Below are positions 5,775-61,233 of a stretch of 64,000 nucleotides of DNA, one piece after another. Source of the DNA: Alphaproteobacteria bacterium. Lineage in GTDB: Bacteria; Pseudomonadota; Alphaproteobacteria; Bin95. Below the pieces are notes generated by a model, which ran no database searches, was not told where the DNA came from, and was given only the letters and a program-made list of their open reading frames with translations. The stretch lies in contig CBDBGH010000003.1 of the NCBI GenBank assembly GCA_965205265.1, positions 5,088,001-5,152,000 of the forward strand, read 5' to 3'. Position 1 is the stretch's first letter, and the number at the start of each line of letters is the position of its first letter. The position numbers and the translations under genes are program-made.

Positions 5775-5807
5775 CAGCCTAGCATCCCGCCAAGAAAAAG
5801 CCGTGGC

Positions 5808-26273: not shown

Positions 26274-26275
26274 AG

Positions 26276-31269: not shown

Positions 31270-31355
31270 TTTAAATGGGTGCACGTCCTGATTTTGCGAG
31301 GTTGAGAAATGCCATGGTTCCGCCACGATATCTGTTTCTTATATTCGGGGGGCAG

Positions 31356-31787
31356 ATGGAGGCGGACATGGCCAGGACCGATCACGACGGCCTCGTCGAA
31401 CAGCGTGGCGAGCTGCTGCGGGAGATTGCGGGCATCGGCGACCTCCGTCAGGGTTCGCTCAGGGCACAGTACCGCAAGTGCGGCAAACCGAACTGCCATT
31501 GCGCGGTCGAGGGGGCGCAGGGGCATGGCCCCTACTGGTTGTTGACCTGGCCGGACAGGGAGACGGGGAAGTCCCGCGGCCGCACCGTTCCCGCCGACGC
31601 CATTGAGGGAACGCGGGCGCAGATCGCGGAATACCAGCGGCTTCGCGGTCTGGTGCGCGCGCTTGTCGAGGTCAGCGGCCGGATATGCGATGCCAGGCTG
31701 GACGCGGACAAGCCGGCCGCGCCGGGAAAAAGGGGGGTCTCGACGCAGCGATCGCGGAGGAGGTCGAGGCCGAGGTCGAGTGGCTGA
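31356..31787 (+). CDS. IS orfA (DUF6788-like)
   Basis: GSLRAQYRKCGKPNCHC...HGPYWLLT. Confidence 0.8.
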   Translation: MEADMARTDHDGLVEQRGELLREIAGIGDLRQGSLRAQYRKCGKPNCHCAVEGAQGHGPYWLLTWPDRETGKSRGRTVPADAIEGTRAQIAEYQRLRGLVRALVEVSGRICDARLDADKPAAPGKRGVSTQRSRRRSRPRSSG

Positions 31788-33067
31788 TCGGCGCGGGCGT
31801 CGTCGATGACTTCCAGGCGATCGAGATCGAAGCGCGGCGGGTTGCGTTGCAGATCATGGGGCAGGCCGTCGCCCACAGGCTCAATGCCGACCGTTCCGAC
31901 AACCGGGGACCGTGGCTGTCGTGTGCGTGCGGCGGCGAGGCGCGCTTCGCCGGCCGCCGGCCCAAGACCTTCACCACCGCTCTCGGCCCTCTGACGCTGG
32001 AGCGCGCCTGGTATCACTGCGACCGTTGCCACCGCGGCTTCAGCCCGCGTGATCGAACCCTCGGCATGGAAGATACTTTCCTCTCACCGGCGGCGCTGCG
32101 CATGATCGGCGTTGCTGCTGCCCGTACCAGCTTCGAGGGCTCCAGCGCCCTGTTGCGCGAACTGGCAGGCCTGGCTGTCGCGCCGAAGACGGTCGAACGC
32201 CATGCCGAGGCGCTCGGGCGAGAGATCGCAGGCGACGAATGCCGCGTGATCGAACCCGAGCCGTCCGACGCCCCCACCCTCTATCTCGGCCTCGACGGCA
32301 CCGGCGTGCCGGCGCGCAAGACCGAGGTCGAGGGCCGCGCGGGCAAGCAGCCCGACGGCTCCGCCAGCACCCGCGAGGCCAAGCTCGCCGTCGTGTGGTC
32401 GGCGGAGACCGTCGACAGGGAGGGGCGTCCGGTGCGCGATCCCGGCTCCGCCACCTACAACGCCGCCATCGAATCCATCGCCACCCGCGAGTTCGACCCC
32501 GAGCCCGCGCCCTTCGCCCGGCGTGTCATCCGCGAGGCCGAACGCCGCGGCTTCGACACGGCCGAGCGCCGGGTCATCCTCGGCGACGGCGCGCCGTGGA
32601 TCTGGAACTTCGCCGATGAGCACTTCCCCGACGCCATCCAGATCGTCGACATCTTCCATGCCAAGGGCCACCTGTTCGACGCAGCCAAGGCGATCTACGG
32701 GATCGGCAGCGAGATCGGTGAGCGATGGGCCGGGAAGCGGCGCGAGGAACTCGACGAGGGCCGCGTCGACGAGGTGATCGCCGCCCTCAAGGGCCATGCC
32801 GAAACTTGCGAGAACGCCCGGAAGAACGCCGAGTACTTCTCCAACAACCGCGAGCGCATGAACTACCCGAAGTTCCGCGCGATGGGCTTGTGCGTGGCCA
32901 GCGGCGTGGTCGAGGGCGGCTGCAAGAACATCGTCGGCGCCCGCCTCAAGCAGGGAGGTATGCGCTGGACCGTCAACGGCGCCAACGCCATCATCGCCCT
33001 GCGCTGCGCCGTCGAGAGCAATCGCTTCGACGACTTCTGGGAACGACGAGCCGGCGCAATACCATGA
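31685..33067 (+). CDS. ISKra4-family transposase, probably expressed by frameshift
   Basis: LDGTGVP, LGDGAPWIW, DIFHA, SGVVEGGCK. Confidence 0.88.
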   Translation: MRCQAGRGQAGRAGKKGGLDAAIAEEVEAEVEWLIGAGVVDDFQAIEIEARRVALQIMGQAVAHRLNADRSDNRGPWLSCACGGEARFAGRRPKTFTTALGPLTLERAWYHCDRCHRGFSPRDRTLGMEDTFLSPAALRMIGVAAARTSFEGSSALLRELAGLAVAPKTVERHAEALGREIAGDECRVIEPEPSDAPTLYLGLDGTGVPARKTEVEGRAGKQPDGSASTREAKLAVVWSAETVDREGRPVRDPGSATYNAAIESIATREFDPEPAPFARRVIREAERRGFDTAERRVILGDGAPWIWNFADEHFPDAIQIVDIFHAKGHLFDAAKAIYGIGSEIGERWAGKRREELDEGRVDEVIAALKGHAETCENARKNAEYFSNNRERMNYPKFRAMGLCVASGVVEGGCKNIVGARLKQGGMRWTVNGANAIIALRCAVESNRFDDFWERRAGAIP

Positions 33068-33161
33068 ATCTCACAAATACGACGTGCACCCGCTTTAAAT
33101 GCCCGGTTCCTGCCCTCACATCGTTTTGGCCTGTTCCACCCGCAGCGAATTGCAGACCTCC

Positions 33162-33526
33162 ATGAACGAAGGGGCGGTATCCGCCGCAGCGGTTATTCTG
33201 GAGATCCGCCGCCGGTCCGGTCTTGCATGGGGGAGCTCGCCAAGCTGTTCGATGTCCCGCAACAGAGCACCCGGCGCCGGACGGGTTCCCAAGGCTGCTG
33301 TCTAGCCCCGCTGGCCCTGGCGGCGCGAGAAAATCCTCGTACTCGACCTGCGAATACAGCCGCCAGAGAGGCGGCCATGCCGACGTCGCGGTATCCGGGT
33401 TCGCTGGTGCCGGTGACTGTTGGAGCACGCGGGCTACGCGAAGGCCCGCGCCGGAGCGCGGGCCTCGGAAAGAGGGCAAGCCGCCCAAACGGCTTGCGTC
33501 TCAGGAACGAGAATAATCGGACCTGA
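33162..33526 (+). pseudogene. Frameshifted HTH/XRE-type gene
   Basis: MNEG...LEIRRRSGLAWG then ELAKLFDVPQQS in a shifted frame. Confidence 0.5.
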
Positions 33527-33726
33527 CCCGAAACGCCAATGGATCCGTCCGCAAAGGGGCCATCCGGCACCGCGTGAGGAACACGCCTGCGAGCAGGGCT
33601 GGGGGATACAGGGAAGCCCGGGCCGTCGGCCATCAGGCCATGGTCCTGGTCCTGGACCGGCCTTCCGCGATCCTGTCGTGGCAGCTATACCTCCTGTCCC
33701 GCGCGGCGCTCAAGCGGAGGTGACAG

Positions 33727-34143
33727 ATGGCCGGGTCGGCCGATCGGGAGATCGAGCGGGACAATGCCGGGTTGCGTGCGCACTACCTTCGCGACACGAA
33801 GACCTGGACGGCGTCCGACATCATCCACGAATGCATGCTCGGGAAACAAGGGGCAAACCCGAGCGAACCGGCGTTACGCTGGATGCGCGAGGGACGGGTG
33901 TTCGCCGTCGATGCCGGCCATGGGCGGCTGTATCCGAGCTTCCAGTTTGAGAACGGCAGGCCGCGCCCCCTCATCGCGGAGGTGCTGAAGCGGCTGCCGG
34001 ACGACATGACGCCGTGGCAGATCGCATTCTGGTTCCGGTCAGGCAATGGCTGGCTTGACGGGAGATCCCCGGAAGAAGCGCTGGAGGACAGGGAAGGTGT
34101 TCTGAAGGCGGCGGACCGCCTGCGCGAAACGGCCATCGGCTGA
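33727..34143 (+). CDS. MbcA/Xre-like antitoxin
   Basis: RWMREGRVFAV...YPSFQF...WQIAFWF...NGWLDGRSP. Confidence 0.75.
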   Translation: MAGSADREIERDNAGLRAHYLRDTKTWTASDIIHECMLGKQGANPSEPALRWMREGRVFAVDAGHGRLYPSFQFENGRPRPLIAEVLKRLPDDMTPWQIAFWFRSGNGWLDGRSPEEALEDREGVLKAADRLRETAIG

Positions 34144-34521
34144 GACGGGCAGGCGGTCCGCCGCCTTCAGCTTTCGGGCCCTCGGACGTGGATATGGCCA
34201 CCGTGAGGTGGCCATAGGGTCCGCTGCTCATCAAGAGGTCAGCAATCCAGAGTTTCTGCCGACACAATGGCAACGAACCCTGGCAGCGTCAATCGGTGTC
34301 GCGCTGGGTGTCCGCTTCTGGAAGCTGCAGCGAATGCCCTGGGACGGGAAACAAGGATTTCAAAAAGCGAACCCCGGGCGCATGCAGGAGCAGAGGCGGA
34401 CCCGGGGGGTTACATGACAGAAGGTTGTTCACTCGATGGCGGATGTCAACGCCTTCCATTCTGCCGGTACCGTGGGACCATCTTGGATAGACCTGGGTTA
34501 AATGCGGAGTAGAATCGCTCC

Positions 34522-35178
34522 ATGCTGAATGCAGGTTTCTCTTCGCCATTGTCTGCGCCCAGGCGGCCTGGTGGTTTGGGGCGGCGCGACGAATATGCAC
34601 AATTGAACCCGGAAAGGGAAATCCTGGACAAGTTCCGGCGCGGCCAGGAACGCTATGCGTTTCGACAGAAGCAATCGCTCCTTCCCGACCGTCGAATGGG
34701 CTCGGCCGCTGGAATCGGCCTTGAGGCCAGGCAGTGGCCGGAGACGGCGGATATCCGCGCGCGGCAACTGCTTCGTCCCGGTGGTTTCCGGTTCGCCGGG
34801 CGCGCGCGCCGGAAGACATGGTTGAACGATGCATTGGCGCAGCTTGCAGACTGTCCGGAAGCTGCTGTCGAGGAGGGGTTGGACGAGCCCTCGAAAATTG
34901 GACTGGAGAAGGCAGGCGCGGTGCTCAGGGCCGTATCGGGATTCGTAGAGGAACCGCCGGACATATATCCAATGGAGGCGGGCGGCATTGTGATCGATCT
35001 ACGGGGTCCCGATTCACCAAGCAGCGTCCTGATGGTGGTGGAGAGCGGCGGGGCCGGAGCGATGTTTTATCGGGCAAGCGGAAAGAAGGGGCGAGCGCGC
35101 GTCGATGACGCAGCGTGTCTGCCAGACCTTCTGAAGGCGCTTGGGTTGTCAACGACGAAGGCGGTGGGAAATCTATAG
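34522..35178 (+). CDS. Hypothetical protein
   Basis: 218-aa ORF; PDIYPMEAGGIVID motif; start uncertain. Confidence 0.55.
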   Translation: MLNAGFSSPLSAPRRPGGLGRRDEYAQLNPEREILDKFRRGQERYAFRQKQSLLPDRRMGSAAGIGLEARQWPETADIRARQLLRPGGFRFAGRARRKTWLNDALAQLADCPEAAVEEGLDEPSKIGLEKAGAVLRAVSGFVEEPPDIYPMEAGGIVIDLRGPDSPSSVLMVVESGGAGAMFYRASGKKGRARVDDAACLPDLLKALGLSTTKAVGNL

Positions 35179-35300
35179 TGACCGGGCCCAAGTCTCGCAG
35201 TAAGGCGGCGATGAGCTGTGGGCCGCCGTCCTTGAGCGCCGCTTCCAGGTATGCGGCCATCTCTTCCGGCGTGCGGAGATGTTCGACGACGTCGTAGGGA
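35175..35300 (-). pseudogene. HI1420-family addiction-module antidote fragment
   Basis: PYDVVEHLRTPEEMAAYLEAALKDG...ALLRDL; truncated at both ends. Confidence 0.7.
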
Positions 35301-35309
35301 ACGCCGCGG

Positions 35310-36071
35310 CTGACGGTGATTTGTCCCTTCTCGATTTGCTACATTAAGCCGGAGATCGCTGCGAGCGGGGCGCGGGCTGCGGATTGCGGCTCCTTCTCGA
35401 TTTGCTACATTCGACGGCATAGCCGGGCCCGAGTACAGGCTGCTGCGGATTGCGGCTCCTTCTCGATTTGCTACATTCTGCTGGCGGAAGCCCGGACCGC
35501 AATGGTCGCTGCGGATTGCGGCTCCTTCTCGATTTGCTACATTGAGCCGCGCCGGCGTGGCGCGCCGGCGGCGGCTGCGGATTGCGGCTCCTTCTCGATT
35601 TGCTACATTGCAGGGATCCCTCTTTCCGACCAGCGGCCAGCTGCGGATTGCGGCTCCTTCTCGATTTGCTACATTCGCCGCCCGCTCGGTTTCCTCGATA
35701 GTCGAGCTGCGGATTGCGGCTCCTTCTCGATTTGCTACATTGCGGGCCCACAGGCTACCCACGGCCCGTTAGCTGCGGATTGCGGCTCCTTCTCGATTTG
35801 CTACATTGTCGCTGGTTGAGGCTGCGAAGCAACTTGGGCTGCGGATTGCGGCTCCTTCTCGATTTGCTACATTGCCGCCGTCCGGAACGCCGCGAACGCG
35901 CCGGCTGCGGATTGCGGCTCCTTCTCGATTTGCTACATTCTGCTGGCGGAAGCCCGGACCGCAATGGTCGCTGCGGATTGCGGCTCCTTCTCGATTTGCT
36001 ACATTGGAGCCGGTGGTCGCGAACACGGCGGTAGCGCTGCGGATTGCGGCTCCTTCTCGATTTGCTACATT
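35310..36071 (+). CRISPR. Type II-C CRISPR array: 11 repeats plus 1 degenerate, 11 spacers of 30 bp
   Basis: 36-bp repeat GCTGCGGATTGCGGCTCCTTCTCGATTTGCTACATT, 66-bp period; orientation from tracrRNA complementarity. Confidence 0.98.
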
Positions 36072-36120
36072 TCCCCCGGCGCAGGGCGTTGAAAATGCGC
36101 CACTTTCCTCCGCCCGCCGA

Positions 36121-36510
36121 TTAGAAAAACTCCAGCTGGGCGGGCGGATTCGGCGGGGCCTGCCGGGTTTTTCCAACATGGACCTCGATGCGGCCGAACT
36201 GCCTGTCGGTAATGGTCAGGAACCGGACCTCCCCTGCTGCCGGGACGCAACGGCCCATGCGGGCGACATGCACCTTGGCATTCTCGATGGACGCGCAATG
36301 CCGAATATAGACGGAATACTGCATCATCGTGAAACCGTCGGAAAGCAGGTCCTTGCGAAAGCGGGCATAGGCTTTGCGCGCTTTGGGCGTGTCGGTCGGA
36401 AGGTCGAACATCGCAATGACCCACATGGTGCGCCACCCCCACGGAAGGACCTTGACGCCGCCTCCTTCGCCGACATCCGCCGCCGGGGACTCAGCAGGCT
36501 TCAGCTGCAT
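36121..36510 (-). CDS. cas2: Cas2
   Basis: MWVIAMFDLPT...FRKDLLSDGFTMMQYSVY; start uncertain (36426-36510). Confidence 0.95.
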   Translation of the reverse strand: MQLKPAESPAADVGEGGGVKVLPWGWRTMWVIAMFDLPTDTPKARKAYARFRKDLLSDGFTMMQYSVYIRHCASIENAKVHVARMGRCVPAAGEVRFLTITDRQFGRIEVHVGKTRQAPPNPPAQLEFF

Positions 36511-37426
36511 CGACGAGGTCCGGCACGACCGGCAGGCCCTCGGGCAGCGACAATGTCCGGTCGCCGCCGGTCAGGGCCCGGCAGAGCGAGGCCGCGCTCG
36601 TATGCAGGGCGAGCAGCAGCGGTTCCCGGCGTCCGCCGACCAGAATAGTTTCGTTGAGCAGCGAGAGGAGCGCCGCGCGGGTCTCCCGCTGCGAAAGCTC
36701 CGGTGCCGCCCCGCTGCCTTCGCCGGCCAGAAGACGGACCCGCCAATCGACATAGGGCCGGTAGGGCTCCAGAAGGTCGTCGGCGAGGCAGAACGGGTTG
36801 GCCCGGTGCCTGTGGTGGACGCCGAGCGACGGAATGAGGCCGGCGGCAACGATGGCGCGCGCCACCGCCGCCCGCACGACCGCATAGCCGTAGTTCAGCA
36901 GCGCGTTCACGCCCTCGGCGCTCCGGTCGCGGCGAAAATCCCTGCCGAACAGGCGCGGCCAGTAGCGCTGCGCCGCCTGCGCTTCCAGATTGTCCGAGTC
37001 TCCGGACCTTACCCGCCGCGCCATCGGCTCCAGCCCGCCATGCCCGCCCGTGAAGTGAGAAAGCACGGCGGCCTGCTGGCCGATCTTGGCCTGCACAATG
37101 GCTTGCCACGCCCGCTTGCGCACCGGCTCGTTCGCTGCAACTTGGGCGCGGTGCCGCTCCGTCTGCACATGATGGGCGTCCAGCGGCAGCATCATCCCCG
37201 TCGGCAGGTGGTCGCGCCCGGTCACCATCACGGTTGCACCGGCTTCCAGCAGCTCCAGGAACACGGCCTGCGTATAGGTTGCGCGGGCGTCGTCCACGAT
37301 CACCACGCCCAGATCCTCGACCGGCAATGTTGCCTTCGGCATGTCCGGCCGCTCCACCACAAGCTGGCGAAGTTTGACCGAAAGCCGCGTGCCCGGCGTC
37401 GAGAATTCGACCGTCTTGCGGATCAT
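36491..37426 (-). CDS. cas1: Cas1 (type II)
   Basis: NLEAQAAQRYW, NALLNYGYAVVR, LADDLLEPYRP. Confidence 0.97.
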   Translation of the reverse strand: MIRKTVEFSTPGTRLSVKLRQLVVERPDMPKATLPVEDLGVVIVDDARATYTQAVFLELLEAGATVMVTGRDHLPTGMMLPLDAHHVQTERHRAQVAANEPVRKRAWQAIVQAKIGQQAAVLSHFTGGHGGLEPMARRVRSGDSDNLEAQAAQRYWPRLFGRDFRRDRSAEGVNALLNYGYAVVRAAVARAIVAAGLIPSLGVHHRHRANPFCLADDLLEPYRPYVDWRVRLLAGEGSGAAPELSQRETRAALLSLLNETILVGGRREPLLLALHTSAASLCRALTGGDRTLSLPEGLPVVPDLVDAAEAC

Positions 37427-37438
37427 GGGCGAAGGGGG

Positions 37439-37492
37439 TCAGTCATTCGCTGGGCGGATGCGGCCGATGGGGTCCACGGCGAGTTTCTTGGG
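37439..37492 (-). pseudogene. cas9: Detached 3' end of cas9
   Basis: (PKK)LAVDPIGRIRPAND* is in frame once the IS and one TSD copy are removed. Confidence 0.9.
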
Positions 37493-37516
37493 GGGTGCAC
37501 GTCGCATTTGTGAGAT

Positions 37517-38899
37517 TCATGGTATTGCGCCGGCTCGTCGTTCCCAGAAGTCGTCGAAGCGATTGCTCTCGACGGCGCAGCGCAGGGCGATGATGGCGTT
37601 GGCGCCGTTGACGGTCCAGCGCATGCCTCCCTGCTTGAGGCGGGCGCCGACGATGTTCTTGCAGCCGCCCTCGACCACGCCGCTGGCCACGCACAAGCCC
37701 ATCGCGCGGAACTTCGGGTAGTTCATGCGCTCGCGGTTGTTGGTGAAATACTCGGCGTTCTTGCGGGCGTTCTCGCAAGTTTCGGCATGGCCCTTGAGGG
37801 CGGCGATCACCTCGTCGACGCGGCCCTCGTCGAGTTCCTCGCGCCGCTTCCCGGCCCATCGCTCACCGATCTCGCTGCCGGTCCCGTAGATCGCCTTGGC
37901 TGCGTCGAACAGGTGGCCCTTGGCATGGAAGATGTCGACGATCTGGATGGCGTCGGGGAAGTGCTCATCGGCGAAGTTCCAGATCCACGGCGCGCCGTCG
38001 CCGAGGATGACCCGGCGCTCGGCCGTGTCGAAGCCGCGGCGTTCGGCCTCGCGGATGACACGCCGGGCGAAGGGCGCGGGCTCGGGGTCGAACTCGCGGG
38101 TGGCGATGGATTCGATGGCGGCGTTGTAGGTGGCGGAGCCGGGGTCGCGCACCGGACGCCCCTCCCTGTCGACGGTCTCCGCCGACCACACGACGGCGAG
38201 CTTGGCCTCGCGGGTGCTGGCGGAGCCGTCGGGCTGCTTGCCCGCGCGGCCCTCGACCTCGGTCTTGCGCGCCGGCACGCCGGTGCCGTCGAGGCCGAGA
38301 TAGAGGGTGGGGGCGTCGGACGGCTCGGGTTCGATCACGCGGCATTCGTCGCCTGCGATCTCTCGCCCGAGCGCCTCGGCATGGCGTTCGACCGTCTTCG
38401 GCGCGACAGCCAGGCCTGCCAGTTCGCGCAACAGGGCGCTGGAGCCCTCGAAGCTGGTACGGGCAGCAGCAACGCCGATCATGCGCAGCGCCGCCGGTGA
38501 GAGGAAAGTATCTTGCATGCCGAGGGTTCGATCACGCGGGCTGAAGCCGCGGTGGCAACGGTCGCAGTGATACCAGGCGCGCTCCAGCGTCAGAGGGCCG
38601 AGAGCGGTGGTGAAGGTCTTGGGCCGGCGGCCGGCGAAGCGCGCCTCGCCGCCGCACGCACACGACAGCCACGGTCCCCGGTTGTCGGAACGGTCGGCAT
38701 TGAGCCTGTGGGCGACGGCCTGCCCCATGATCTGCAACGCAACCCGCCGCGCTTCGATCTCGATCGCCTGGAAGTCATCGACGACGCCCGCGCCGATCAG
38801 CCACTCGACCTCGGCCTCGACCTCCTCCGCGATCGCTGCGTCGAGACCCCCCTTTTTCCCGGCGCGGCCGGCTTGTCCGCGTCCAGCCTGGCATCGCAT
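37517..38899 (-). CDS. ISKra4-family transposase
   Basis: Differs from copy 1 by only a few residues. Confidence 0.88.
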   Translation of the reverse strand: MRCQAGRGQAGRAGKKGGLDAAIAEEVEAEVEWLIGAGVVDDFQAIEIEARRVALQIMGQAVAHRLNADRSDNRGPWLSCACGGEARFAGRRPKTFTTALGPLTLERAWYHCDRCHRGFSPRDRTLGMQDTFLSPAALRMIGVAAARTSFEGSSALLRELAGLAVAPKTVERHAEALGREIAGDECRVIEPEPSDAPTLYLGLDGTGVPARKTEVEGRAGKQPDGSASTREAKLAVVWSAETVDREGRPVRDPGSATYNAAIESIATREFDPEPAPFARRVIREAERRGFDTAERRVILGDGAPWIWNFADEHFPDAIQIVDIFHAKGHLFDAAKAIYGTGSEIGERWAGKRREELDEGRVDEVIAALKGHAETCENARKNAEYFTNNRERMNYPKFRAMGLCVASGVVEGGCKNIVGARLKQGGMRWTVNGANAIIALRCAVESNRFDDFWERRAGAIP

Positions 38900-39228
38900 A
38901 TCCGGCCGCTGACCTCGACAAGCGCGCGCACCAGACCGCGAAGCCGCTGGTATTCCGCGATCTGCGCCCGCGTTCCCTCAATGGCGTCGGCGGGAACGGT
39001 GCGGCCGCGGGACTTCCCTGTCTCCCTGTCCGGCCAAGTCAACAACCAGTAGGGGCCATGCCCCTGCGCCCCCTCGACCGCGCAATGGCAGTTCGGTTTG
39101 CCGCACTTGCGGTACTGTGCCCTGAGCGAACCCTGACGGAGGTCGCCGATGCCCGCAATCTCCCGCAGCAGCTCGCCACGCTGTTCGACGAGGCCGTCGT
39201 GATCGGTCCTGGCCATGTCCGCCTCCAT
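38797..39228 (-). CDS. IS orfA (DUF6788-like)
   Basis: Same as copy 1 orfA. Confidence 0.8.
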   Translation of the reverse strand: MEADMARTDHDGLVEQRGELLREIAGIGDLRQGSLRAQYRKCGKPNCHCAVEGAQGHGPYWLLTWPDRETGKSRGRTVPADAIEGTRAQIAEYQRLRGLVRALVEVSGRICDARLDADKPAAPGKRGVSTQRSRRRSRPRSSG

Positions 39229-39292
39229 CTGCCCCCCGAATATAAGAAACAGATATCGTGGCGAAACCATGGCATTTCTCAACCTCGCAAAA

Positions 39293-42200
39293 TCAGGACG
39301 TGCACCCTTTCTTGGGAGACCTATTCATGAACCCGCCAAAGCGAGGCTCGAAATTTTCTCGCTTGCCATCCATTTGCAGCCTACTCGCCTCAGTTGCAGT
39401 TGTAGGACGTGCGTCAGTGACTCTTGCAAGCACTGGGCGGCCCGAAGACTTGATGCCATGAACCACCCATATTCCTGACTCTTCTCCTCCCTGTAATTCA
39501 ACGGTGTCCCCCGGTGCGAGCGACATAATAAAGGTCGAATTGTCTCCCCGGTCCCGCTGCACTACCGCTAATCCCTTTGCTAAGCGTTGTAATGCTTCGA
39601 TGAGACTGACCACTTGTCGATCCGGGCGGCCATTGGACTTGCGGTAAATCGCCATATGGTGGTTGTTCGCTCGATCGGCATAGCCTGTGGAGGCCGGTGC
39701 CATAAGGTCAATCTGTTGCTTTTTTCTCACGCGTACTTTCCGGATTTCTGGTCCTTTTCGTCCCCGCTTCGGGTAGCCATTGATAAATGCTCTTTTTGGA
39801 TTGCCACCATGATCTGTTATCCACTTGTGAACAATCTCTTGCACGCCGTTATCCACTATATCGATTACCCTTGACCCGTTGGATTGCTCGTTTTCGGACA
39901 TCGTCAAGTCTTCGACCTTCTTGCGGGTAACGAAATGACGATAGATTGTGCCGTCTTTCCCCGTTTCATCCACTCGCGTATCGCCGTAGATCGTCTCCTT
40001 GTGCAGAGGGCCCGAGATTTTCTTGCGGACACGGTGGGAGACGACGATTTCCGCGACCGCGCGTTCTGCATCGGCGCGGATCGAGGGCCAGGGTTGCGGG
40101 AGCGGTGGTGGGTCCGGGACGTGGCGCTCGTCCTCGGCCTGCCAATAGCGGGAGAGCCGGTTCGTCATGCCGGAATGAGCGCAGGCCACAACCAGCGCAT
40201 CAACCGCATGGTGGCGGTGGTCCGCGCGGGTTTTCTCGCCGTCGTCGGAGAGGATGTTGTTCAACCCCCAGAGCCGGCGGAGATGCCCGGTTACGCGCCC
40301 GGTCACCGCCTGCACGGTCACCGGCGCTTCCGGCCCGACATCCGGCCACAGCCGTTTCAGGAAGGCGACGGTCTCGCGCGCCGCATATCCGGTGTCGTTC
40401 AACTGTCGGTCGGCGAAACCCTCCGGGATTTCCCTGGCCGCAAACCGCCTGATCTTGCGCGGCGACATACCGGTCTTCCCCATGCCATCCAGCCGCTCAA
40501 GAACAGCCGACCAGCGGTCGACATCCTCGTGCAGATATTCGTAGGGCGTCCGGTTCCCCTTCTTCTCGTTCTCATCCACCCGGCAGAGAGTCTTGTTCCC
40601 GTAGCTGTTGTCGAGAGAACGGGACCTCGGCCATATGTGCTCGACATCGAAGCGCCGGGACCGACCGAACAGGTCGTCGAAGCAGATAAGGTCTCCCGTA
40701 TAGGGGCACTGCTTTCCGCACTCCTGCCAAAGAAGCCACTTTTCGATGTCGCGGCGCGAAGGATTGATAAGCCCGTTTTCCTCAAGGTGCGCCTTCGCCT
40801 TCCTGCGTTGCCCGTCCTGCCGGCGGATCGCTGCGCTGTATTCCTCCCGGTCGCGCTTCGACCGGCCGACATCGCGCGTAAGCTCCACCCGGATCAGGTC
40901 CGGCTTGCCGAACATGCCGATCAGATTGTTCACCACCTTGCGCAACTCGTTGCGGGTCCGCGCTACAGTCGGGTTTCGCAGGGCTGCAGTGCGTTTCCCT
41001 TCCTCCGGGTCCGCCGGGCTGGGCAGCCGGTCCAGCACTTCCCCGGTCGGTCCTTCCCGGTTTGGGAACGTCCTGTTCCGCCAAGCCACCCATTCGGGTT
41101 CGAGACTGTTGAGGAGGGCGCCGAAGCGCACCCCCTCTTCCAGACGCGGCAGCACGGCTTGCAGGGCCTCGACCGAGAACGGCTCCCAACCCGTCGGCAG
41201 CTTGAGCGCCGCCAAATTGCGAGCCTGCGCTTCTGTGACGCCGAAATCGCGGATGAACTCTTGCGTCGCAGCCTCGCGGTCGTCCCTGCGCTCCCTGGCA
41301 GGCCGGATTACCACCCGGTCTCCGATTTCGCCGTAATCGGCATTTCTTAATCTGGCAGGGACATTGTCACGGATAGCCTGCCGGTGCGGATGGCTGTTCC
41401 ACTCGTCGCCGAAAATGCCCTTTAGCTTCGCCTCGACCGCGTTGCCGAGCAGGTTCCTGTCGCCGCCGACTTCCAGATTGAAACGCAGGCGTTTTTCCGC
41501 TCCCGGTTCGCCGCGCTTCTTGAAGAGCGGCGCGAGAGCACGGCGCACACCGGGCCATGTCATCGACGCCTGGGTTTGCAAGCGACCGAGAATCGCGGCG
41601 CGTTCGTCGGTGTCGAGAGGACGGCTGTTACCGCCGGCAATTTCGAGATTGTTGACCTTCTCCAGCATGCGCCGCTGCTGTGAAAGCCATGACCCTTTGG
41701 GGCAAAGCGTTGCGCCCGGCATCAGGCGGCATTCGCCGAGTGTGTTCTTGCGCCAGAACACGGGTCGTTGGGCGAACATCGCCTCCTGCACGGCGTTTTT
41801 CAATCCCGCTTCCCGCAGAACAGGCAGATGTTTTTGTTGCCCGGTCCAAATTGCATCGAATTCGTCTTCCACGATTCTCCGGGTTGCATGCTCGCCGCGT
41901 TTACGCTCGTGCTGGCCCCGTTCGGCCAGCCATGCCCCAAGCGTCCGGCCGGTCTGCTTCAACGCCTGTTCGGTTTTTCCCCGGCCCGTTCTCGCCTTCT
42001 TTTCGTCTGCGTCTTCGTCGTCCGGCGCTGCATCGTCGGAAACCTCTTCGATATCCCGCCCCTTGAAGTGCCGACGCTGCGCCAGATGGTAGAGCGCCCG
42101 GCCCAATTCGTGCGCCGCTAAAGCCTCGCCATCCACAGCCCTGCGGCGCAACTCATAAGGGTCGGTGCCGTCCATAAGGCATCGCCACGCATCGGAGCCG

Positions 42201-53690: not shown

Positions 53691-54518
53691 ATGATCGACA
53701 TGTTCCATATCTCCGCAGAGGAACTGCTTTCGTACATCGCCGCAGGCGGCGACCCCGATGCCGCTTCGGGTGAGGAGGGATGGAGGCCGCTGCATGCCGC
53801 TGCGCGGGATGGCGCGCTCCATGCGGTGCAACTGCTGCTCGAAAGGGGCGCCTGCGTCAACGGGCGGGCCGCCACGGAGGAAACGCCGCTCCATATCGCA
53901 GCGCTGTTCGGTCACGAACGCACCGTCCGGCTTCTGCTTGAAGCGGGAGCGGAACTGGAGGCGCGCGATGAATGGCGTCATACCCCCCTTTACAAGGCCG
54001 CCTGGGGAGGTGGAACCCTGGGGCGAATGAACCCGGGCACCAGCGCGACCGCGACGATGAAGCGCCTTATGGCCAGCGGCGCCGATGTGACAGTGAAGGA
54101 CTACCGGGAACGGACGCCGTTGCATGCGGCGGCATGGTCGGGAAAGCCGAACCGGCTGCGCCTTCTTCTCGCCGCGGGCGCAGACGCGTCGGCGCTTTCA
54201 TGCGACTATCGCACGCCGCTTCATCATGCAGCCGGACAGGGCAGCCGCGAGAGCCTTCGGCTTCTTCTCGACGCAGGCGCGAACCTGGCCGCAACCGACA
54301 TCGAGGGACGGACGGCGCTGCACTATGCTGCCTGCGCCGAAAAGCCCGTCCATGGCCTTCGGTTCCTTCTGGATCGGGGTGCCGACCCCGAGGTGCGCGC
54401 CCATGACGGCCGCACCGCCCTCGACGATGCCGAATACGAGAATCGCGAAGGCGCGGGCGTCTGCGTGCTGCGGGAATGGATGGAGGCCGTGCGTGGCGAC
54501 ACCCCTTCACCCGCCTGA
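53691..54518 (+). CDS. Ankyrin-repeat protein
   Basis: Multiple TPLHxAA repeats. Confidence 0.93.
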   Translation: MIDMFHISAEELLSYIAAGGDPDAASGEEGWRPLHAAARDGALHAVQLLLERGACVNGRAATEETPLHIAALFGHERTVRLLLEAGAELEARDEWRHTPLYKAAWGGGTLGRMNPGTSATATMKRLMASGADVTVKDYRERTPLHAAAWSGKPNRLRLLLAAGADASALSCDYRTPLHHAAGQGSRESLRLLLDAGANLAATDIEGRTALHYAACAEKPVHGLRFLLDRGADPEVRAHDGRTALDDAEYENREGAGVCVLREWMEAVRGDTPSPA

Positions 54519-54592
54519 TGCAGGACGGGTGCGATATGCGCGCCCATTCAGCCATGAAAAGTTCCAGGACGGGATTCAACCGGGAGATATCG

Positions 54593-55798
54593 ATGCCGGA
54601 TTCCGATGACGGGACGGTGCAGACCCCCGGCGACAGGACGGCCGCCGGTCTGGCCAGACGGGGCTGGGCGCCGCTGCACCTTGCCGCCGCCCAGGGCCTG
54701 CACCGACAGGTACTTGCCCTGCTCCATGAAGCGCGGGAGGACCTGGACCGGGGCAATGACGACGGACACACCCCGCTGCATCTGGCGCTCCTGTCCGGTT
54801 CCGAGCCGACGGTCCGTCATCTGCTGGAGGCGGAAGCCGGGGTTCATGTGCGCAACGGCGATGGCTGGACCCCGCTTCACACGGCGGCCTGGCTGGGCGT
54901 GCCGGCCAATGTAGCGGCCCTGCTTGCCCACAAGGCCGACCCGGAAGCCGCAACGAAAGACGGGTTCAGGCCGCTGCATCTCGCGGCCCGGGCCGGCAAC
55001 CCGGAAGCGCTTGCAATTCTGCTGGACGGATGGTGGGGCGACAGGGATATCGCCGCTCCCAACAACGAGGGCAGGGCGGCCCTGCACCTGGCGGCCTGTT
55101 CCGAAAGCGCCGAGTGCGTGGCACGCCTCGTCAGCGCCGGGGCCGATCCGAACGCGCCGGACAGCGAAGGCTTGACGCCGCTTCTGTGGGCGGTGATGAC
55201 CGGGCGCCCGGACAATGTGCACGTCCTTCTGGAGGCCGGCGCCGATCCCGACCTTCCGGACGAGAACGGGGGCGCCCCGCCGCTTCTGAAGGCGGCCCGC
55301 CTTCCCGATCCGGCCATCGTCCGCCAGCTGCTCGCCGCCGGGGCCGATCCGAACGGGCGGACCCAGGACGGTTGGACCGTTCTCCACGCGGCATCCGGGA
55401 ACGTGCCGCCCGAGCATTGCGAGCGGTCCGGGGAGGTCGTCCGGATGCTCATTGCGGCCGGCGCGGATCCCGGACGCCCGGGCAGAGGCGCATGGACGGC
55501 CTTGCATCAGGCCGCCGCGGAGTTCAATGCGGGCGCCGCGCGGGCCCTTCTCGAAGGAGGGGTTCCCGTCGAGGCGCGCAGCGCCGGGGGCGATACCGCT
55601 CTTCACCTGGCGGCGTGGCACGGGGCACGGGACGTCGTGGCGTGCCTTCTTGAGGCAGGGGCCGATGTGTCCGCGAAGGGCCGTGACGGTGCAACGGCGC
55701 TCGAAACGGCCCGGGAACACGGCCTCGACGATATCGTCGAGATTCTCGAAGCCGGCGCGGGCGCCCCCGCGGATACGATCACGGGCCCGCCCGTCTGA
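54593..55798 (+). CDS. Ankyrin-repeat protein
   Basis: About 11 ankyrin repeats. Confidence 0.93.
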   Translation: MPDSDDGTVQTPGDRTAAGLARRGWAPLHLAAAQGLHRQVLALLHEAREDLDRGNDDGHTPLHLALLSGSEPTVRHLLEAEAGVHVRNGDGWTPLHTAAWLGVPANVAALLAHKADPEAATKDGFRPLHLAARAGNPEALAILLDGWWGDRDIAAPNNEGRAALHLAACSESAECVARLVSAGADPNAPDSEGLTPLLWAVMTGRPDNVHVLLEAGADPDLPDENGGAPPLLKAARLPDPAIVRQLLAAGADPNGRTQDGWTVLHAASGNVPPEHCERSGEVVRMLIAAGADPGRPGRGAWTALHQAAAEFNAGAARALLEGGVPVEARSAGGDTALHLAAWHGARDVVACLLEAGADVSAKGRDGATALETAREHGLDDIVEILEAGAGAPADTITGPPV

Positions 55799-55837
55799 GC
55801 GCGCAGGGTCGAGACGCACGAAGAGGAGGGGTTTGCG

Positions 55838-57097
55838 ATGGCGCCCACATCAGGAATACCGACAGTTGAAGATATCCTCTGTCTGCCCCCGGAGCGTGAG
55901 GATCTTGCCTCAAGGGGCTGGACTGCGCTGCACCTGGCGGCCCGGCTGGGTATGGAGGAAGAGGTCGAGGCGCTCATGCGAATGAATGAACTCGTTCCCG
56001 AAGATCAGCCAATGCCGTTCCATCCTCCCGAGGTCGATGCGCGCAATGACGAGGAAAGGACGCCCCTGCATCTCGCCGCTCTCGCAGGCGCGGAGTTCGC
56101 CGCACGGACGCTCGTGGATTGCGGGGCCTCCGTCGACGGCCGCGACCTGCACGGGCGGACGCCCCTTCACCTGGCGGCGCTGAGCGACGGGAACGACCCG
56201 GAAAGTGTGGTCAAGGCGCTCATGGCAGCGGGCGCGGACCCGGAGGCCCGCGATGCCGGCGGCCGCACTCCGCTCCACCTGGCGGCCGCCGCGGGCAAGC
56301 CGGAAAACCTGAGTGCCCTCCGGTCGATCCTGCCGGGACCGGAGCCCATTGCCGAAGCGCGGGACAATGACGGCCGCACGCCGCTGCACCTTGCGGCGGC
56401 AGTGGGCAGCCCGGCCTGTATCGAGGGCCTCCTTGCCGCCGGGGCCGGCATCGACGCCCGGGACGACGATGACGGACATACGCCGCTGCACCTGGCGGCG
56501 CTCTGCGGGGACGCCGAGTGCGTCGGTCTTCTGCTGGAGACAGGGGCCGATATCCATGCCGATACGGAGCATGGCTGGACCGCCGCGCATTTTGCGGTCG
56601 TGAGCGACAGCTACGCCTGCCTGCAGCTGCTGCTCAACAGGAGGGCCAACCCGAATTCAGCGGCGCGGGACGGATGGACGCCGCTCCATCATGCTGCCCT
56701 GCAAGGCAACGCAGACATGGTGCATCCGCTGGTCGACGCCGGCGCCCGTCCGGACATGCCCGAGAACGACGAGGGCGCAACCGCATTGCATGTCGCCGCA
56801 AGGGCCGGGTACGAGGCTGCTGTGGCGGCCCTGATCGAACGGGGCGCGGCCCCGGATGTGCGCGACGGGCATGAGCGCACGCCGCTGCACTATGCGGCGC
56901 ATCGCGGTGTTCCATCCGGAACCCTCGAGGCGCTGCTTGCCGCCGGGGCCGACCGCAACGCCAGGGACTGCGAGGGGATGACCCCTCTCGAGCTTCTGGA
57001 AATGGACGGCGGTCGCGGCGACAGCCCAGACAAGGAACGCATCGCGGAGATCTTGCGACGCGTGTCCGGCCATGCGGACGCCGGGATGTCGATGTAG
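55838..57097 (+). CDS. Ankyrin-repeat protein
   Basis: About 11 ankyrin repeats. Confidence 0.93.
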   Translation: MAPTSGIPTVEDILCLPPEREDLASRGWTALHLAARLGMEEEVEALMRMNELVPEDQPMPFHPPEVDARNDEERTPLHLAALAGAEFAARTLVDCGASVDGRDLHGRTPLHLAALSDGNDPESVVKALMAAGADPEARDAGGRTPLHLAAAAGKPENLSALRSILPGPEPIAEARDNDGRTPLHLAAAVGSPACIEGLLAAGAGIDARDDDDGHTPLHLAALCGDAECVGLLLETGADIHADTEHGWTAAHFAVVSDSYACLQLLLNRRANPNSAARDGWTPLHHAALQGNADMVHPLVDAGARPDMPENDEGATALHVAARAGYEAAVAALIERGAAPDVRDGHERTPLHYAAHRGVPSGTLEALLAAGADRNARDCEGMTPLELLEMDGGRGDSPDKERIAEILRRVSGHADAGMSM

Positions 57098-58051: not shown

Positions 58052-58224
58052 AGGCGAAACCGGCCAAAGGTGCAAGACAGCACCGGAGACTCCCTTTCCC
58101 ACAGTCGGCGCGTCCGGGAATCCCGGCCTCCGGGAACCTTGTAACGGGACGCTCGCGCTGCTTGGTGATGGCAAGGAGACAATGCATGCCGATGAGCCAC
58201 AGGAACCGGAATCGGCGGGCGAAG

Positions 58225-58626
58225 ATGCGCTATCGTGTCCAGATGAACCGGGAACGCGGCGCGACAACGCCCGAGCTGGGGCGGATCAGCGGATACGGCC
58301 CCGCGTCCTGTTACCGCCAGCTGAACGACATGGAGACATTCGAAGGGGGTCTTGTATCCCGCCTGGAGTTGCGCGACGGGCGCAAGGTCAGGGTCTGGTA
58401 CGACCCCGACCATATTCCCGTCCTGCCGGGTGAGGCCGCGGTGGTGGCCCTCACGAGTGCGGGGGACCGGCTGCCGGCGGCCCGCTTCTTCGCCTATGAG
58501 CCGGCGATCGCATATGTGCGCAAGCAGTGCCGGGCGAACCATGCGCGTATCGGCGGCTACGAGATCTTCGAGGCAGCCGACGGTGTGCCATGGCCCGGAC
58601 GAAACGTTCGGGGCTTACAAAGGTAA
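58225..58626 (+). pseudogene. Hypothetical gene interrupted by the tnpB element
   Basis: ...WPGRNV continues in frame as LTVRLDPADGSWLDGGPYA* (to 60013) once the element is removed. Confidence 0.7.
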
Positions 58627-59946
58627 GTTGACATTGCCGTGTATCGTATCCAGTTCGGCCGCATGAGCGAGGTCTTCACGCACCGTCAGGTGGTATTCCG
58701 GCTTCTGCCGGGCCGCCGGTCCGTTTGGCGGCGTCTGGAGCGGGTTCTGGAGGCGCAGCGGCAGTTGTACAACGCCGCCCTTCAGGAACGCTGCGACGCC
58801 TGGCGTCTGGCCGGGCGGTCGCTCTCCTATATCGACCAGGCGAAGAGCCTGACGGTGTGCCGCCGGGAGGACCCCGAGATGGCGGCCGTTCCGGTCGCCG
58901 TGCAGCGCGGGACGCTGAAGCGCCTGGACGAGGCGATGAAGGGCTTCTTCCGGCGGGTGAAGGCGGGCCAGAAGCCGGGTTTTCCCCGGTTCCGGTCCCG
59001 CCGGCGGTTCGACAGCCTCTCCTTCGTCTCGGGGGTGAGGCTGGAGGACCGGGCCCGGCCCGGCGCGGACTGCGGGTCCGGCGCGGCCTGCCTGCGCCTT
59101 CCGGGTTTCGGCCCGCTTGCGGTCCGCCGGCGGGGCGGCAACCCGCATGGGGATGGCGAGCCGGTCTCGGCGGTGCTGAAGCGCGAGGCCGGCAAGTGGT
59201 ACGCCGTGGTCTGCTACCGGGTCCCGGCGCCGGCGGTCCACGAGGATGACGACAGCGTCATCGGGGTGGACATGAACGCTGGCCAGGTGGCGGCGAGCGG
59301 TCCGGGGCCGGAAGCCCGCCTGTTCCATGCCCCGGATACGCGGCGGCTGGAGGCGAGGGCGAAGCGCCTTGCCCGGCGTCTGGCGCGCCAGAAGCGCGGC
59401 TCCGGGCGCCGGGAGCGCACCCGCGCCCGTCTGGCGAAGACGAGGCGGCGCCTTTCCGGGATGCGGTGCGACTGGCGCCACCATGTCTCGCGGACAGTCG
59501 CCGACGCCGCCCATACCGTCGCCGTCGAGGACCTCCGGGTCCGGAACATGACGCGCAGCGCCCGGGGCACGACAGAGGAGCCGGGCGCCCGGGTCCGGCA
59601 GAAGGCCGGGCTCAACCGCGTCATCCTGGCCACGGGATGGGCGGAACTGCGCTTCATGTTCGGCTACAAGGCGGGACGGCTGCTCGCGGTCGACCCGGCC
59701 CATACCAGCCGGACCTGCGCCGCCTGCGGCCATGTCGATGCCGGCTCGCGGCGTTCGCGGGCCGAATTCCAGTGCACGGCCTGCGGCCATGCGGACCATG
59801 CCGACGCGAATGCCGGCAGCAACATCCGGCGTCGGGGACTGGCGCTGCTGCACGGGGAGGGGCGTTCCGGCTTGCGGACCCCTGCGATCCGTGAAAACGC
59901 AGGGATGCTGGCGGCATGACGCCGTCAACTCATCTTTGTAAGGCCC
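58610..59946 (+). mobile_element. Non-autonomous TIR element carrying only tnpB
   Basis: 23-bp TIRs (20/23 identical); 8-bp TSD AAACGTTC at 58602-58609 and 59947-59954. Confidence 0.85.
58663..59919 (+). CDS. tnpB: TnpB RNA-guided endonuclease
   Basis: RQLYNAALQER, GFPRFRS, IGVD, VEDL, TSRTCAACG..CTACG, ADANA. Confidence 0.95.
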   Translation: MSEVFTHRQVVFRLLPGRRSVWRRLERVLEAQRQLYNAALQERCDAWRLAGRSLSYIDQAKSLTVCRREDPEMAAVPVAVQRGTLKRLDEAMKGFFRRVKAGQKPGFPRFRSRRRFDSLSFVSGVRLEDRARPGADCGSGAACLRLPGFGPLAVRRRGGNPHGDGEPVSAVLKREAGKWYAVVCYRVPAPAVHEDDDSVIGVDMNAGQVAASGPGPEARLFHAPDTRRLEARAKRLARRLARQKRGSGRRERTRARLAKTRRRLSGMRCDWRHHVSRTVADAAHTVAVEDLRVRNMTRSARGTTEEPGARVRQKAGLNRVILATGWAELRFMFGYKAGRLLAVDPAHTSRTCAACGHVDAGSRRSRAEFQCTACGHADHADANAGSNIRRRGLALLHGEGRSGLRTPAIRENAGMLAA

Positions 59947-60043
59947 AAACGTTCTGACGGTCCGGCTCGACCCGGCGGACGGCAGCTGGCTGGATGGGGG
60001 ACCCTATGCCTGACCGCGAGCGGCAGACCGGGAGGACGGGACG

Positions 60044-60265
60044 ATGATCCGTCAGGCGGACCTGCAACTGAAGGAACGCTGGCTCGCCCGCTTCGGCCGG
60101 CTGCCGCCCGAGGCGCGGACCGCCCTGCGCGACTGTCTGCTCGAACTGCGCGCGGATGCGCTGGGACGGGCCGAGCACTCCTGGCGAAACCACAAGGCGC
60201 CGATGGCGGCGTACTGGAAGGTCGTCGGGGTCTATGCCGGACATCTGGCGCGGGCGCTGCGGTAA
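60044..60265 (+). CDS. Small hypothetical protein
   Basis: SWRNHKAPMAAYWKVVGVYAGHLARAL; RBS GGAGG. Confidence 0.7.
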   Translation: MIRQADLQLKERWLARFGRLPPEARTALRDCLLELRADALGRAEHSWRNHKAPMAAYWKVVGVYAGHLARALR

Positions 60266-60314
60266 GGCCCCGCAGGGATCGGCAAGCAACCAGGACGAAC
60301 AGGGAGACAAGGCC

Positions 60315-60776
60315 ATGCCACTGCCGGAGAAACGCTTCTTCGTGAGGAAGTCGGTTCCGCTCTCGGAAATCGATCTCGAGAACCGCCGGGCGGCCGCCAC
60401 CGGCAGTCCGCGATATGCCGCGGCGGCGTCAGGGGCCGACTTCAACGGTCACTGCCTCGAGATCCGCTTCAACCCGCACAAAAGCCACTGGTCGGCCCAC
60501 TACTACTGGGGAGAGTTCGTCTGGCTTGCCCATGGCACGCTGGAGCGTTGCCTCGCGGTATGCACGCGGCGCTGCGACGAGACCGACCAGCGCGGCACCT
60601 GCATCGTCGTGGACATCGAGGACGGCGGGAACGCCCCCGAGAGCGTCGAGGTCCAGGTGGAACTCTGCCGGTCCGCCGGTCTGGAGGAGGTCTGCGGCAG
60701 CGGGAAGGATGCCGTGGACTTCGCCTATAGCCGGGGCGCGTACGAACCCGAAACGGCGGGCGGCCCGGAGCTGTGA
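60315..60776 (+). CDS. Hypothetical protein, paralog A
   Basis: SVPLSEIDLENRRAAATGSPRYA...ADFNGH...W.A.YYWG. Confidence 0.75.
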   Translation: MPLPEKRFFVRKSVPLSEIDLENRRAAATGSPRYAAAASGADFNGHCLEIRFNPHKSHWSAHYYWGEFVWLAHGTLERCLAVCTRRCDETDQRGTCIVVDIEDGGNAPESVEVQVELCRSAGLEEVCGSGKDAVDFAYSRGAYEPETAGGPEL

Positions 60777-60786
60777 GAGCCGGGCC

Positions 60787-61233
60787 ATGACAGCCCGGCG
60801 ATTCGTGAAGAGATCGGTTCCGCTTACCGAGACCGACCGCATCAACCGCCGCGCGGCGGCGCAGGGCAGCCTGCGTTACGCCGCGCTCGCCGAGCATGCG
60901 GACTACAATGGCCACGCGGTGTCGCTGACGTGGAACACCTTCCGGAAATACTGGGTCGGCGAATACTACCGCGCCGGCCGCCGGGTGATCGCACGGGGCG
61001 CGTTCGGCCATTGCCTGGATGCGTGCATGGACCACTACAACCGCGGCCAGCGCGGAACGGTGATCGTGGCGGCGCTCCGGAATGACGGCGAGCCGCCGGA
61101 AACGGTCGAGGAGCAGGAGCGCCTCTGCCTCGCGGCCGGACTCGAGGAATGTCCGCCGGACATCAATCCGTACGAGTTCGCCGACAGCACCGTGCCCAGG
61201 GACCTGAGTGCGCCCGTGCTTCAGCGGCCATGA
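60787..61233 (+). CDS. Hypothetical protein, paralog B
   Basis: SVPLTETDRINRRAAAQGSLRYA...ADYNGH...WVGEYYRAG. Confidence 0.75.
   Translation: MTARRFVKRSVPLTETDRINRRAAAQGSLRYAALAEHADYNGHAVSLTWNTFRKYWVGEYYRAGRRVIARGAFGHCLDACMDHYNRGQRGTVIVAALRNDGEPPETVEEQERLCLAAGLEECPPDINPYEFADSTVPRDLSAPVLQRP

Follow-up and report, generated by a model that had tools for sequence, protein, structure and literature searches.

A TnpB-encoding mobile element lies within a protein-coding gene in a 64,000-nucleotide (nt) stretch of the alphaproteobacterial contig CBDBGH010000003.1 (the window, whose positions are used as coordinates throughout). Element and interrupted gene are both on the + strand. The element is about 1.3 kb long and is bounded by two terminal inverted repeats (TIRs), GGGGCTTACAAAGGTAAGTTGAC on the left (58610–58632) and GTCAACTCATCTTTGTAAGGCCC on the right (59924–59946), which match as inverted repeats at 20 of 23 positions. 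An 8-bp direct repeat, AAACGTTC, to which no strand is assigned, abuts both TIR tips (58602–58609 and 59947–59954) and was taken as a target site duplication (TSD). A search of the window with the TIR 23-mer (up to 3 mismatches) returned just these two sites, in inverted orientation, with none expected from 100 shuffles. The left tip, GGGGCTTAC, agreed by weight matrix with the consensus of the family described below, GGGACTTATATA, and the motifs TTGAC and GTCAA mark the inner boundaries of both TIRs, here as well as in many relatives. The sole cargo gene is tnpB, and no transposase was found inside the element among the window open reading frames (ORFs) and their Pfam matches.

The weight of the TSD evidence comes from the position of two copies of the 8-mer against the TIR tips and not from its frequency, which is by itself not significant (3 occurrences in the window, 1.1 expected). 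Because the AACGTT within the TSD is palindromic, the inverted repeat formally stretches to 30 nt, and the window copy alone cannot separate a TSD from a longer TIR; by manual count the flanks match at 8 of 8 positions as a direct repeat and at 6 of 8 as an inverted repeat. A TSD was preferred to a longer TIR because each relative carries a different 8-bp duplication.

The 5′ part of the interrupted gene (58162–58609, no Pfam family) was delimited from its ORF and a homologue. The ORF, which begins at 58162, reads ...PWPGRNV and then enters the TIR, and the right TSD copy, in the same codon phase, translates to NVLTVRLDPADGSWLDGGPYA followed by a stop. The 3′ part (59955–60013) is in phase after removal of the element and one TSD. 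A homologue of 160 amino acids (aa) and 63% identity has the C-terminus ...PWPGQLVLTVWRDPANGRWLDRGRNA / LVLTVWRDPANGRWLDRGRNA; after the shared V, 12 of 19 residues are identical to it (manual count) and the stop is at the same position. Because the in-phase tail and stop match this uninterrupted homologue, removal of the element and one TSD restores the gene. A first-pass annotation of this DNA had claimed such an in-frame restoration and a genuine insertion with TIRs and an 8-bp TSD; both claims held, the latter on the TIR match, on AAACGTTC at both sides and on the different TSD in each relative.

The tnpB gene (58663–59919) was assigned from Pfam, from a match to known structures and from the alignment of relatives. 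It probably starts at the ATG at 58663 (418 aa) rather than at the GTG at 58639 (426 aa), because the consensus of the relatives begins there. Its product contains the OrfB_IS605 (PF01385) and Cas12f1-like_TNB (PF07282) domains, and the whole protein can be aligned with two structures of ISDra2 TnpB, 8H1J and 8BF8 (E about 3e-25). The RuvC triad D211, E297 and D389 and the zinc-finger cysteines C360, C363, C379 and C382 do not vary among 32 aligned relatives, the most distant at 51% identity, in agreement with the earlier description of the sole cargo as a catalytically intact tnpB.

Hundreds of TnpB relatives were found; the alignment of 32 of them was used to scan genome contigs, and 247 relatives were confirmed. 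The best 80 loci of the 247 (36–75% identity) were analysed, and came from marine metagenome-assembled genomes (MAGs) of Thalassobaculaceae, Paracoccaceae, other Alphaproteobacteria and Rhodothermales. Seven loci without an inverted-repeat call and one cut by a contig end were set aside, and the remaining 72 loci with the window gave 73 copies. Tips of the GGGnnTTAT type were recognised at both ends in 52 of these, with a weight matrix that was built from the confident copies themselves and is circular for the arms, not for the TSDs. Among the 52 two-tip copies the TSD matched at 8 of 8 positions in 30, at 7 of 8 in 3 and at 6 or fewer in 19. Four further copies with one degenerate arm also had an 8/8 TSD, for a total of 34 exact TSDs, and these with their flanks represented 34 different sites. 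The check for duplications at other copies that the first-pass annotation had suggested was thereby carried out, and returned a different TSD each time. The weight-matrix consensus of the tips, GGGACTTATATA, corresponds to GGG(A/G)(C/A)TTAT. Further in, the TIR arms vary between subfamilies and agree within one element; the inner motifs include GTGACC, GTCACA, GTGCCA and GTACCC by subfamily, and TTGAC is not universal.

Contigs that carry many copies include CBDEUR010000003.1 and the CBDCAO0100000xx contigs. Between two copies on one contig (L001 and L002), identity was 99.5% across precisely the 1303-bp tip-to-tip span; their TSDs differed, and their flanks were 26% identical, which is the random level. 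Because this identity ends at the tips and the TSDs vary by site, the moving unit runs from TIR to TIR, and the tnpB-only element moves as a TIR/TSD unit. Four copies interrupted by nested insertions (L036, L041, L047 and L056) kept their outer TIRs and an 8/8 TSD at a larger tip-to-tip distance. Long TIR-to-TIR spans were considered as autonomous forms and rejected, since their extra length comes from nested insertions or from a duplication that holds a vapBC-like pair. The nested DNA held an IS110-like ORF in L047, an IS4-like ORF in L056 and a reverse-transcriptase ORF with a YADD motif in L041 (all by eye); an ORF of L031 related to the IS4-like ORF of L056 has the Pfam domains DDE_Tnp_1 and DruA. 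In L036 a 3053-bp version of the element (3208–6260) has an 8/8 TSD, AGAATCAA, and its left ~220 bp are duplicated. Between the duplicates lies the vapBC-like pair, recognised by eye as the end of an antitoxin-like ORF and a 147-aa PIN-like ORF (4205–4648), so that L036 would be a cassette with a second acquired cargo.

L031 (2097–5958) and L052 (2098–5969) are 3.86-kb composites that share 96.9% identity, occupy different sites and have unrelated flanks; in both, a 752-aa ORF that carries Pfam DruA and DDE_Tnp_1 domains interrupts tnpB, and neither composite has a TSD. L067 has a second element (466–1915), of another subfamily with L074-like tips, 3 kb upstream of its main copy. In a plasmid collection, blastn with the element and tblastn with TnpB returned only relatives of less than 40% identity, and the TIR as query gave a single match at chance level.

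The 3′ end of the element was analysed in an RNA alignment of 34 of the 52 two-tip copies, chosen to span the subfamilies, each represented by its final 150 nt and 20 nt of flank. Three helices were taken from RNAalifold, a terminal hairpin and a pseudoknot were added by eye, and all 29 pairs were counted. For control, the 3′ partners were slid by 1–3 columns and 500 shuffles were made; columns were mapped onto the window. Over the 29 pairs, 86.3% of alignment cells were paired, against 32–43% when slid, and 83 cells were changed on both sides, against 12–31. The covariation score was 0.231, against at most 0.074 when slid, and none of the 500 shuffles reached the observed values.

In the window, helix H1 pairs 59829–59833 with 59841–59845, and H2 pairs 59851–59855 with 59889–59893 (both from RNAalifold, 34 copies; all helices on the + strand). 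H3 joins C-terminal tnpB codons (59900–59904) to the middle of the right TIR (59933–59937), and three of its pairs have 11–18 sequences changed on both sides. The terminal hairpin (59907–59915 with 59921–59929) holds the tnpB stop codon in its loop and has the inner TIR as its 3′ arm; it was 66% paired, the alignment being poor in the Paracoccaceae group. The many G-U pairs (19 at columns 137–153 and 14 at columns 127–163) argue for a sense-strand RNA, not a DNA hairpin.

The putative pseudoknot pairs the loop of H1 (59835–59839) with the last 5 nt of the element (59942–59946). In this helix, found by eye and then counted, 90% of cells were paired, pair types included AU:29/CG:3 and CG:20/UA:2, and 12 unpaired cells fell at the outermost pair. 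Of the 27 elements with unlike tips, 20 have a loop that pairs better with the right tip and 1 has a loop that fits a left-type tip better, whereas in 6 the pairing is equal. Altogether 19 of the 23 bases of the right TIR stand in conserved, covarying pairs across the 34 copies. Covariation thus shows a predicted scaffold formed by the last ~120 nt of the element and running to its tip (59829–59946, with a provisional 5′ limit), of which the right TIR would also be the 3′ part. This arrangement of scaffold and pseudoknot matches the account of TnpB right-end RNAs (reRNAs) in PMC10711439, where the end of the scaffold folds into a pseudoknot with a segment ~130 nt upstream, as a −130/−3 rescue supports, and where IS200/605 scaffolds end at the transposon boundary.

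The first-pass annotation had taken the fixed right-TIR sequence for the guide. This was not supported, given the pairing and covariation of 19 of 23 TIR bases and the predicted pairing of the last 5 nt with the upstream loop; the right TIR is scaffold by this evidence, and therefore the guide should be the variable flank, an outcome that the annotation itself had set against its proposal. Since the scaffold ends at the element tip, and given the canonical TnpB architecture (PMC10711439), the guide should begin at 59947 and read the TSD and then the flank (59947–59966, +, at an assumed length). The predicted guide target is AAACGTTCTGACGGTCCGGC, with a G before it as a candidate transposon-associated motif (TAM).

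This G (58601, +, in the window) was evaluated at the 34 exact-TSD sites, oriented by tnpB; the background frequency of G was 0.318. Immediately 5′ of the left TSD, G occurred in 32 of 34 (binomial P = 3.4e-14), and no other upstream base was conserved, whereas at the mirror position after the right TSD (+8) the base was C in 10 of 34 (P = 0.58). Within the TSD, position 1 was A, C or T and never G, and positions 2 and 7 were A or T only. From a symmetric TIR transpososome one would expect either a symmetric motif or mixed orientations. The G at −1 may be the TAM or part of it; it could equally reflect the preference of an asymmetric transposase. At the empty site a G precedes the TSD and flank, and at the occupied site the C of the TIR tip precedes the same sequence; because the occupied site has C, not G, before the target, the element would be spared.

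Taken together, the locus is probably best read as a non-autonomous TIR/TSD cassette, transposed in trans by a DDE enzyme, whose RNA scaffold runs to the tip, whose guide is drawn from the flank and which would spread by homing. Two ~23-bp TIRs with GGGnnTTAT tips around tnpB and its omega RNA would constitute the cassette, and a DDE transposase encoded elsewhere in the genome would move it. As with canonical TnpB elements, transcription through the TSD into the neighbouring flank would supply the guide, so that TnpB would recognise the unoccupied allele, consisting of left flank, one TSD and right flank. A cut of the empty allele would then lead recombination to copy the element back, as restorative homing or drive. 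More weakly, the G before the TSD may serve as TAM or part of one, and the C of the TIR tip may protect the occupied site from the element's own nuclease. We regard as tentative the further claim that an obligate mobile element-guided activity (OMEGA) system has been fully re-fitted to a TSD-making DDE transposon, in which the TIR would be both transposase site and scaffold with pseudoknot, the variable TSD would be the guide seed, and empty and occupied sites would be told apart by one base, G versus C.

Several results weigh against this interpretation. The minimum free energy fold of the window copy recovered the same three domains, but as a single-sequence fold was not significant (z = −1.37). 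The window pseudoknot is mismatched, with 4 of 5 pairs formed between the loop GGGAC and the tip GGCCC, and one of the five H3 pairs is broken. At one position the window copy has A opposite G where L001 has an A-U pair. Independent changes in the pseudoknot are few, and its invariant GGG/CCC could be held by coding and transposase binding. An Rfam scan gave no family that reached significance; a promoter scan gave 0 sites, and the sole terminator-like site was the terminal hairpin. Among the two-tip copies, 19 of 52 have no matching TSD. Their flanks still resemble insertion half-sites, in that they begin A-rich and that 13 of the 19 have G at −1, and they fit decay or recombination between copies, to which they were provisionally attributed. 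A one-base TAM is unusually short. A cut-and-paste DDE transposase already breaks its donor, which makes the benefit of homing less obvious (PMC13565253).

The transposase side carries further counter-evidence. When 30 ORFs of the window were compared with Pfam, no IS1595 domain was found, and the elements present were IS4-like, IS21 and UPF0236. No partner transposase was found in the 80 loci, which with their 5-kb flanks cover little of each genome. A pattern and weight-matrix search of the window and the 80 loci gave no further TIR pair with a TSD, and of 24 repeated ORF clusters (from 423 filtered ORFs) the representatives included only IS4/IS5-like and IS110-like transposases. An IS5-type ORF (DDE_Tnp_1 and DUF4096; L019 280–1179, L037 3728–4501) was considered as the partner and rejected, as it lies outside the TSD-bounded element; it stands ~350 bp upstream of the TnpB element at two loci that share a flank.

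Unrelated nested insertion sequences aside, all 80 loci lack a transposase between the TIRs. Because the TIR-to-TIR unit moves and no transposase lies inside it at any of the 80 loci, a DDE transposase presumably acts in trans. The proposal of mobilisation in trans by a DDE enzyme, already made on first inspection, is thus likely in so far as a TIR/TSD unit moves, but the partner it called for was not found, nor was an autonomous transposase with the same TIRs, such as a DDE(N/E)K enzyme with the Pfam domain DDE_Tnp_IS1595, in the 64-kb window or the 5-kb flanks of the 80 loci. The IS1595 family makes 8-bp TSDs, and its ISNwi1 group includes members with passenger genes. The end consensus of this group, probably 'ggnnatTAT', would fit the family tip GGGACTTATATA. 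An IS1595/ISNwi1-type enzyme as the transposase is a guess from this consensus and the TSD length.

That TnpB is a mere passenger of a DDE-moved cassette, with an RNA structure that is a relic or serves tnpB expression and a G at −1 set by the transposase alone, appears unlikely. The donor break made by DDE cut-and-paste, to which homing may add little (PMC13565253), would suit such a passenger, as would the weakened pairs of the window copy and the persistence, with intact ends, of copies whose tnpB is disrupted by nested elements. The passenger model does not, however, account for the invariant triad and zinc finger of the 32 relatives, for compensatory changes that keep the scaffold across subfamilies, or for a loop that follows the right tip and not the left, and a one-sided target base is not expected of a symmetric TIR transposase.

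The fixed-TIR guide, in which the scaffold would end at the TCAA in the right TIR and the fixed outer TIR would aim TnpB at transposon ends or cargo-less junctions, is improbable. It draws on the TTGAC/GTCAA motifs at the inner TIR edges of the window and many relatives, and on the resemblance of TTGAC to the ISDra2 target TTGAT (PMC13565253), but these motifs differ by subfamily. The bases 3′ of TCAA (59933–59937, alignment columns 161–165) are those that pair with the C-terminal codons in H3, with its double changes, and the last 5 nt pair with the H1 loop. No cargo-less TIR-TIR junction of at least 40 bp was found in the window or the 80 loci.

A third model, very improbable as an account of present mobility, is an IS1341-type element that was inserted after TTGAC in a small palindromic repeat, of the miniature inverted-repeat transposable element (MITE) or repetitive extragenic palindromic (REP) kind, and that is moved by a Y1 TnpA, the TIRs and TSD being those of the host repeat. 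The nearest plasmid relative inspected is of this kind: in plasmid pANAM02 of Bosea sp. ANAM02 (L081; 2915–2960 and 4225–4275) a TnpB of 38% identity follows TTGAT within a palindromic CCGGCATCCGAGG / CCTCGGATGCCGG repeat. This copy is a canonical IS1341-type insertion in a REP-like hairpin, without GGGnnTTAT tips. Its arrangement may hint at where the TnpB core came from: a TIR element could plausibly have captured such a core. Present mobility of this type is opposed by the 34 different 8-bp duplications at the TIR tips of 34 copies, by the end of identity between copies at those tips, and by the covariation, within the element, of the TIR and the 3′ end of tnpB. Empty copies of the MITE were not encountered, and no Y1 transposase was found among the locus ORFs looked at. 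The MITE alternative of the first-pass annotation accordingly failed for mobility, the TSD differing at every copy, and survives as a possible origin.

Finally, that TnpB itself helps insertion, by a staggered cut whose fill-in after joining would yield the 8-bp duplication with no separate transposase, is hardly credible: although neither the 80 loci nor the window yielded a transposase and the target is orientation-specific, TIR tips that are conserved and symmetric are what marks a binding site for a transposase, a new guide would be needed before insertion at each new site, and a literature search turned up no precedent, nor do we know of one.

Among DDE families, ISL2, IS630 and IS1031 make 2–3-bp or TA duplications. 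Neither TIRs nor TSDs are found in IS200/IS605 and IS607, and IS200/IS605 elements insert 3′ of a 4–5-nt target, according to PMC13565253, with which the first-pass annotation agreed in setting these families apart. The same review credits Altae-Tran et al. 2023 with prokaryotic TnpB associated with DDE transposases (ISL2, IS630, IS1031) between TIRs. In that study (PMC10691335), six DDE-associated TnpB branches (DDE-1 to DDE-6) with inverted terminal repeats are described, and solo TnpBs with near-identical ends are taken to suggest mobilisation in trans. The present family is like these branches in placing a prokaryotic TnpB in an element with inverted terminal repeats, with the tnpB 3′ end near the transposon end. 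It is unlike DDE-1 to DDE-6, as described in PMC10691335, which names IS630, in its 8-bp TSD, its GGGnnTTAT tips and the solo state of all 80 loci. The terms 'IS1595' and 'TSD' are absent from the main text of PMC10691335, and the family may already be one branch in its supplements or Fig. 4.

The IS1341 group of IS200/IS605 shares with the element a tnpB-only content of ~1.3 kb, an ISDra2-type TnpB and a scaffold that overlaps the 3′ end of the gene, and differs in the 23-bp TIRs, the 8-bp TSDs and the single conserved base before the TSD found here (for IS200/IS605, PMC13565253). The ISDra2 TnpB-omega RNA complex (PDB 8H1J, 8BF8, 8EXA) likewise has a multi-hairpin scaffold, and its pseudoknot, which involves the bases directly preceding the guide, is like the one proposed here; the ISDra2 element depends on a Y1 TnpA for its movement, with TTGAT as target and TAM, whereas here the end is a TIR of the transposase type and the only conserved upstream target base is G.

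The element, with TIRs and TSD, a cargo gene and no transposase inside, corresponds to the definition of a mobile insertion cassette, or MITE-like element with cargo. With the IS1595/ISNwi1 group it has the 8-bp TSD in common, and the end consensus may be alike. Eukaryotic TIR/TSD transposons that carry Fanzor were reportedly described by Bao and Jurka in 2013. Like the family studied here, Fanzor transposons place a TnpB-family nuclease in a cut-and-paste transposon and TIR bases within the guide-RNA scaffold (PMC10711439). They are eukaryotic or viral, with a short fixed TSD that is part of the scaffold in that account, whereas the present elements are bacterial, with a variable 8-bp TSD. 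Because it is 8 bp long and variable, the TSD here is very unlikely to be scaffold and more probably opens the guide. A full-text literature search, confined to main texts, gave no description of a TnpB cassette with an 8-bp TSD, nor of a merger between the RNA of such a cassette and a TIR. The occurrence of TnpB in DDE-type TIR elements is already in the literature, and the 8-bp-TSD GGGnnTTAT family, the merger of RNA and TIR and the one-sided target base appear to be new.

The remainder of the window is rich in insertion sequences. Two inverted, 99% identical 1818-bp copies of an insertion sequence-like unit (31274–33091 and 37493–39310), each with a 460-aa ORF weakly matching Pfam UPF0236, enclose cas1 (36491–37426, −) and a repeat array (35310–36072) with a 66-bp period and ~11–12 units. 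The array looks like a clustered regularly interspaced short palindromic repeats (CRISPR) array, and the whole of 31274–39310 resembles a composite transposon carrying an adaptation module. An IS4-like DDE_Tnp_1 ORF (24461–26116, −) overlaps an IS21-type pair consisting of a Mu-transposase/rve ORF (25289–27781) and IstB (27778–28563). Three ankyrin-repeat proteins are encoded in 17071–17922 and 54476–57097, two of them just upstream of the TnpB element, and a pentapeptide-repeat protein at 17995–18867; these proteins and the related MAG sources suggest a host-associated marine alphaproteobacterium. Just downstream of the interrupted gene (60156–61233) are two overlapping or adjacent ORFs of 206 and 272 aa with no Pfam family, which share a repeated ~90-aa module, KRSVPL.E.D..NRRAA..GS.RYAA...

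The 2026 OMEGA review PMC13565253 describes prokaryotic links between TnpB and DDE transposases as rare, and asks whether inflexible target recognition is the explanation. The present family is a natural example that exists in many copies, its boundaries being exact and its independent insertions numbering in the dozens; in it the scaffold is merged with a transposase-type TIR, and it offers a prokaryotic parallel to the Fanzors of eukaryotic TIR/TSD transposons. It also yields a testable target rule: G, then the TSD, then the flank. Should a single G prove to be the TAM, so compact a nuclease, with little restriction on its target sequence, would be attractive for editing. The one-sided target base, if the re-fitted OMEGA reading holds, would mean that the TAM of TnpB, and not the transposase alone, decides which insertions and orientations survive or form.

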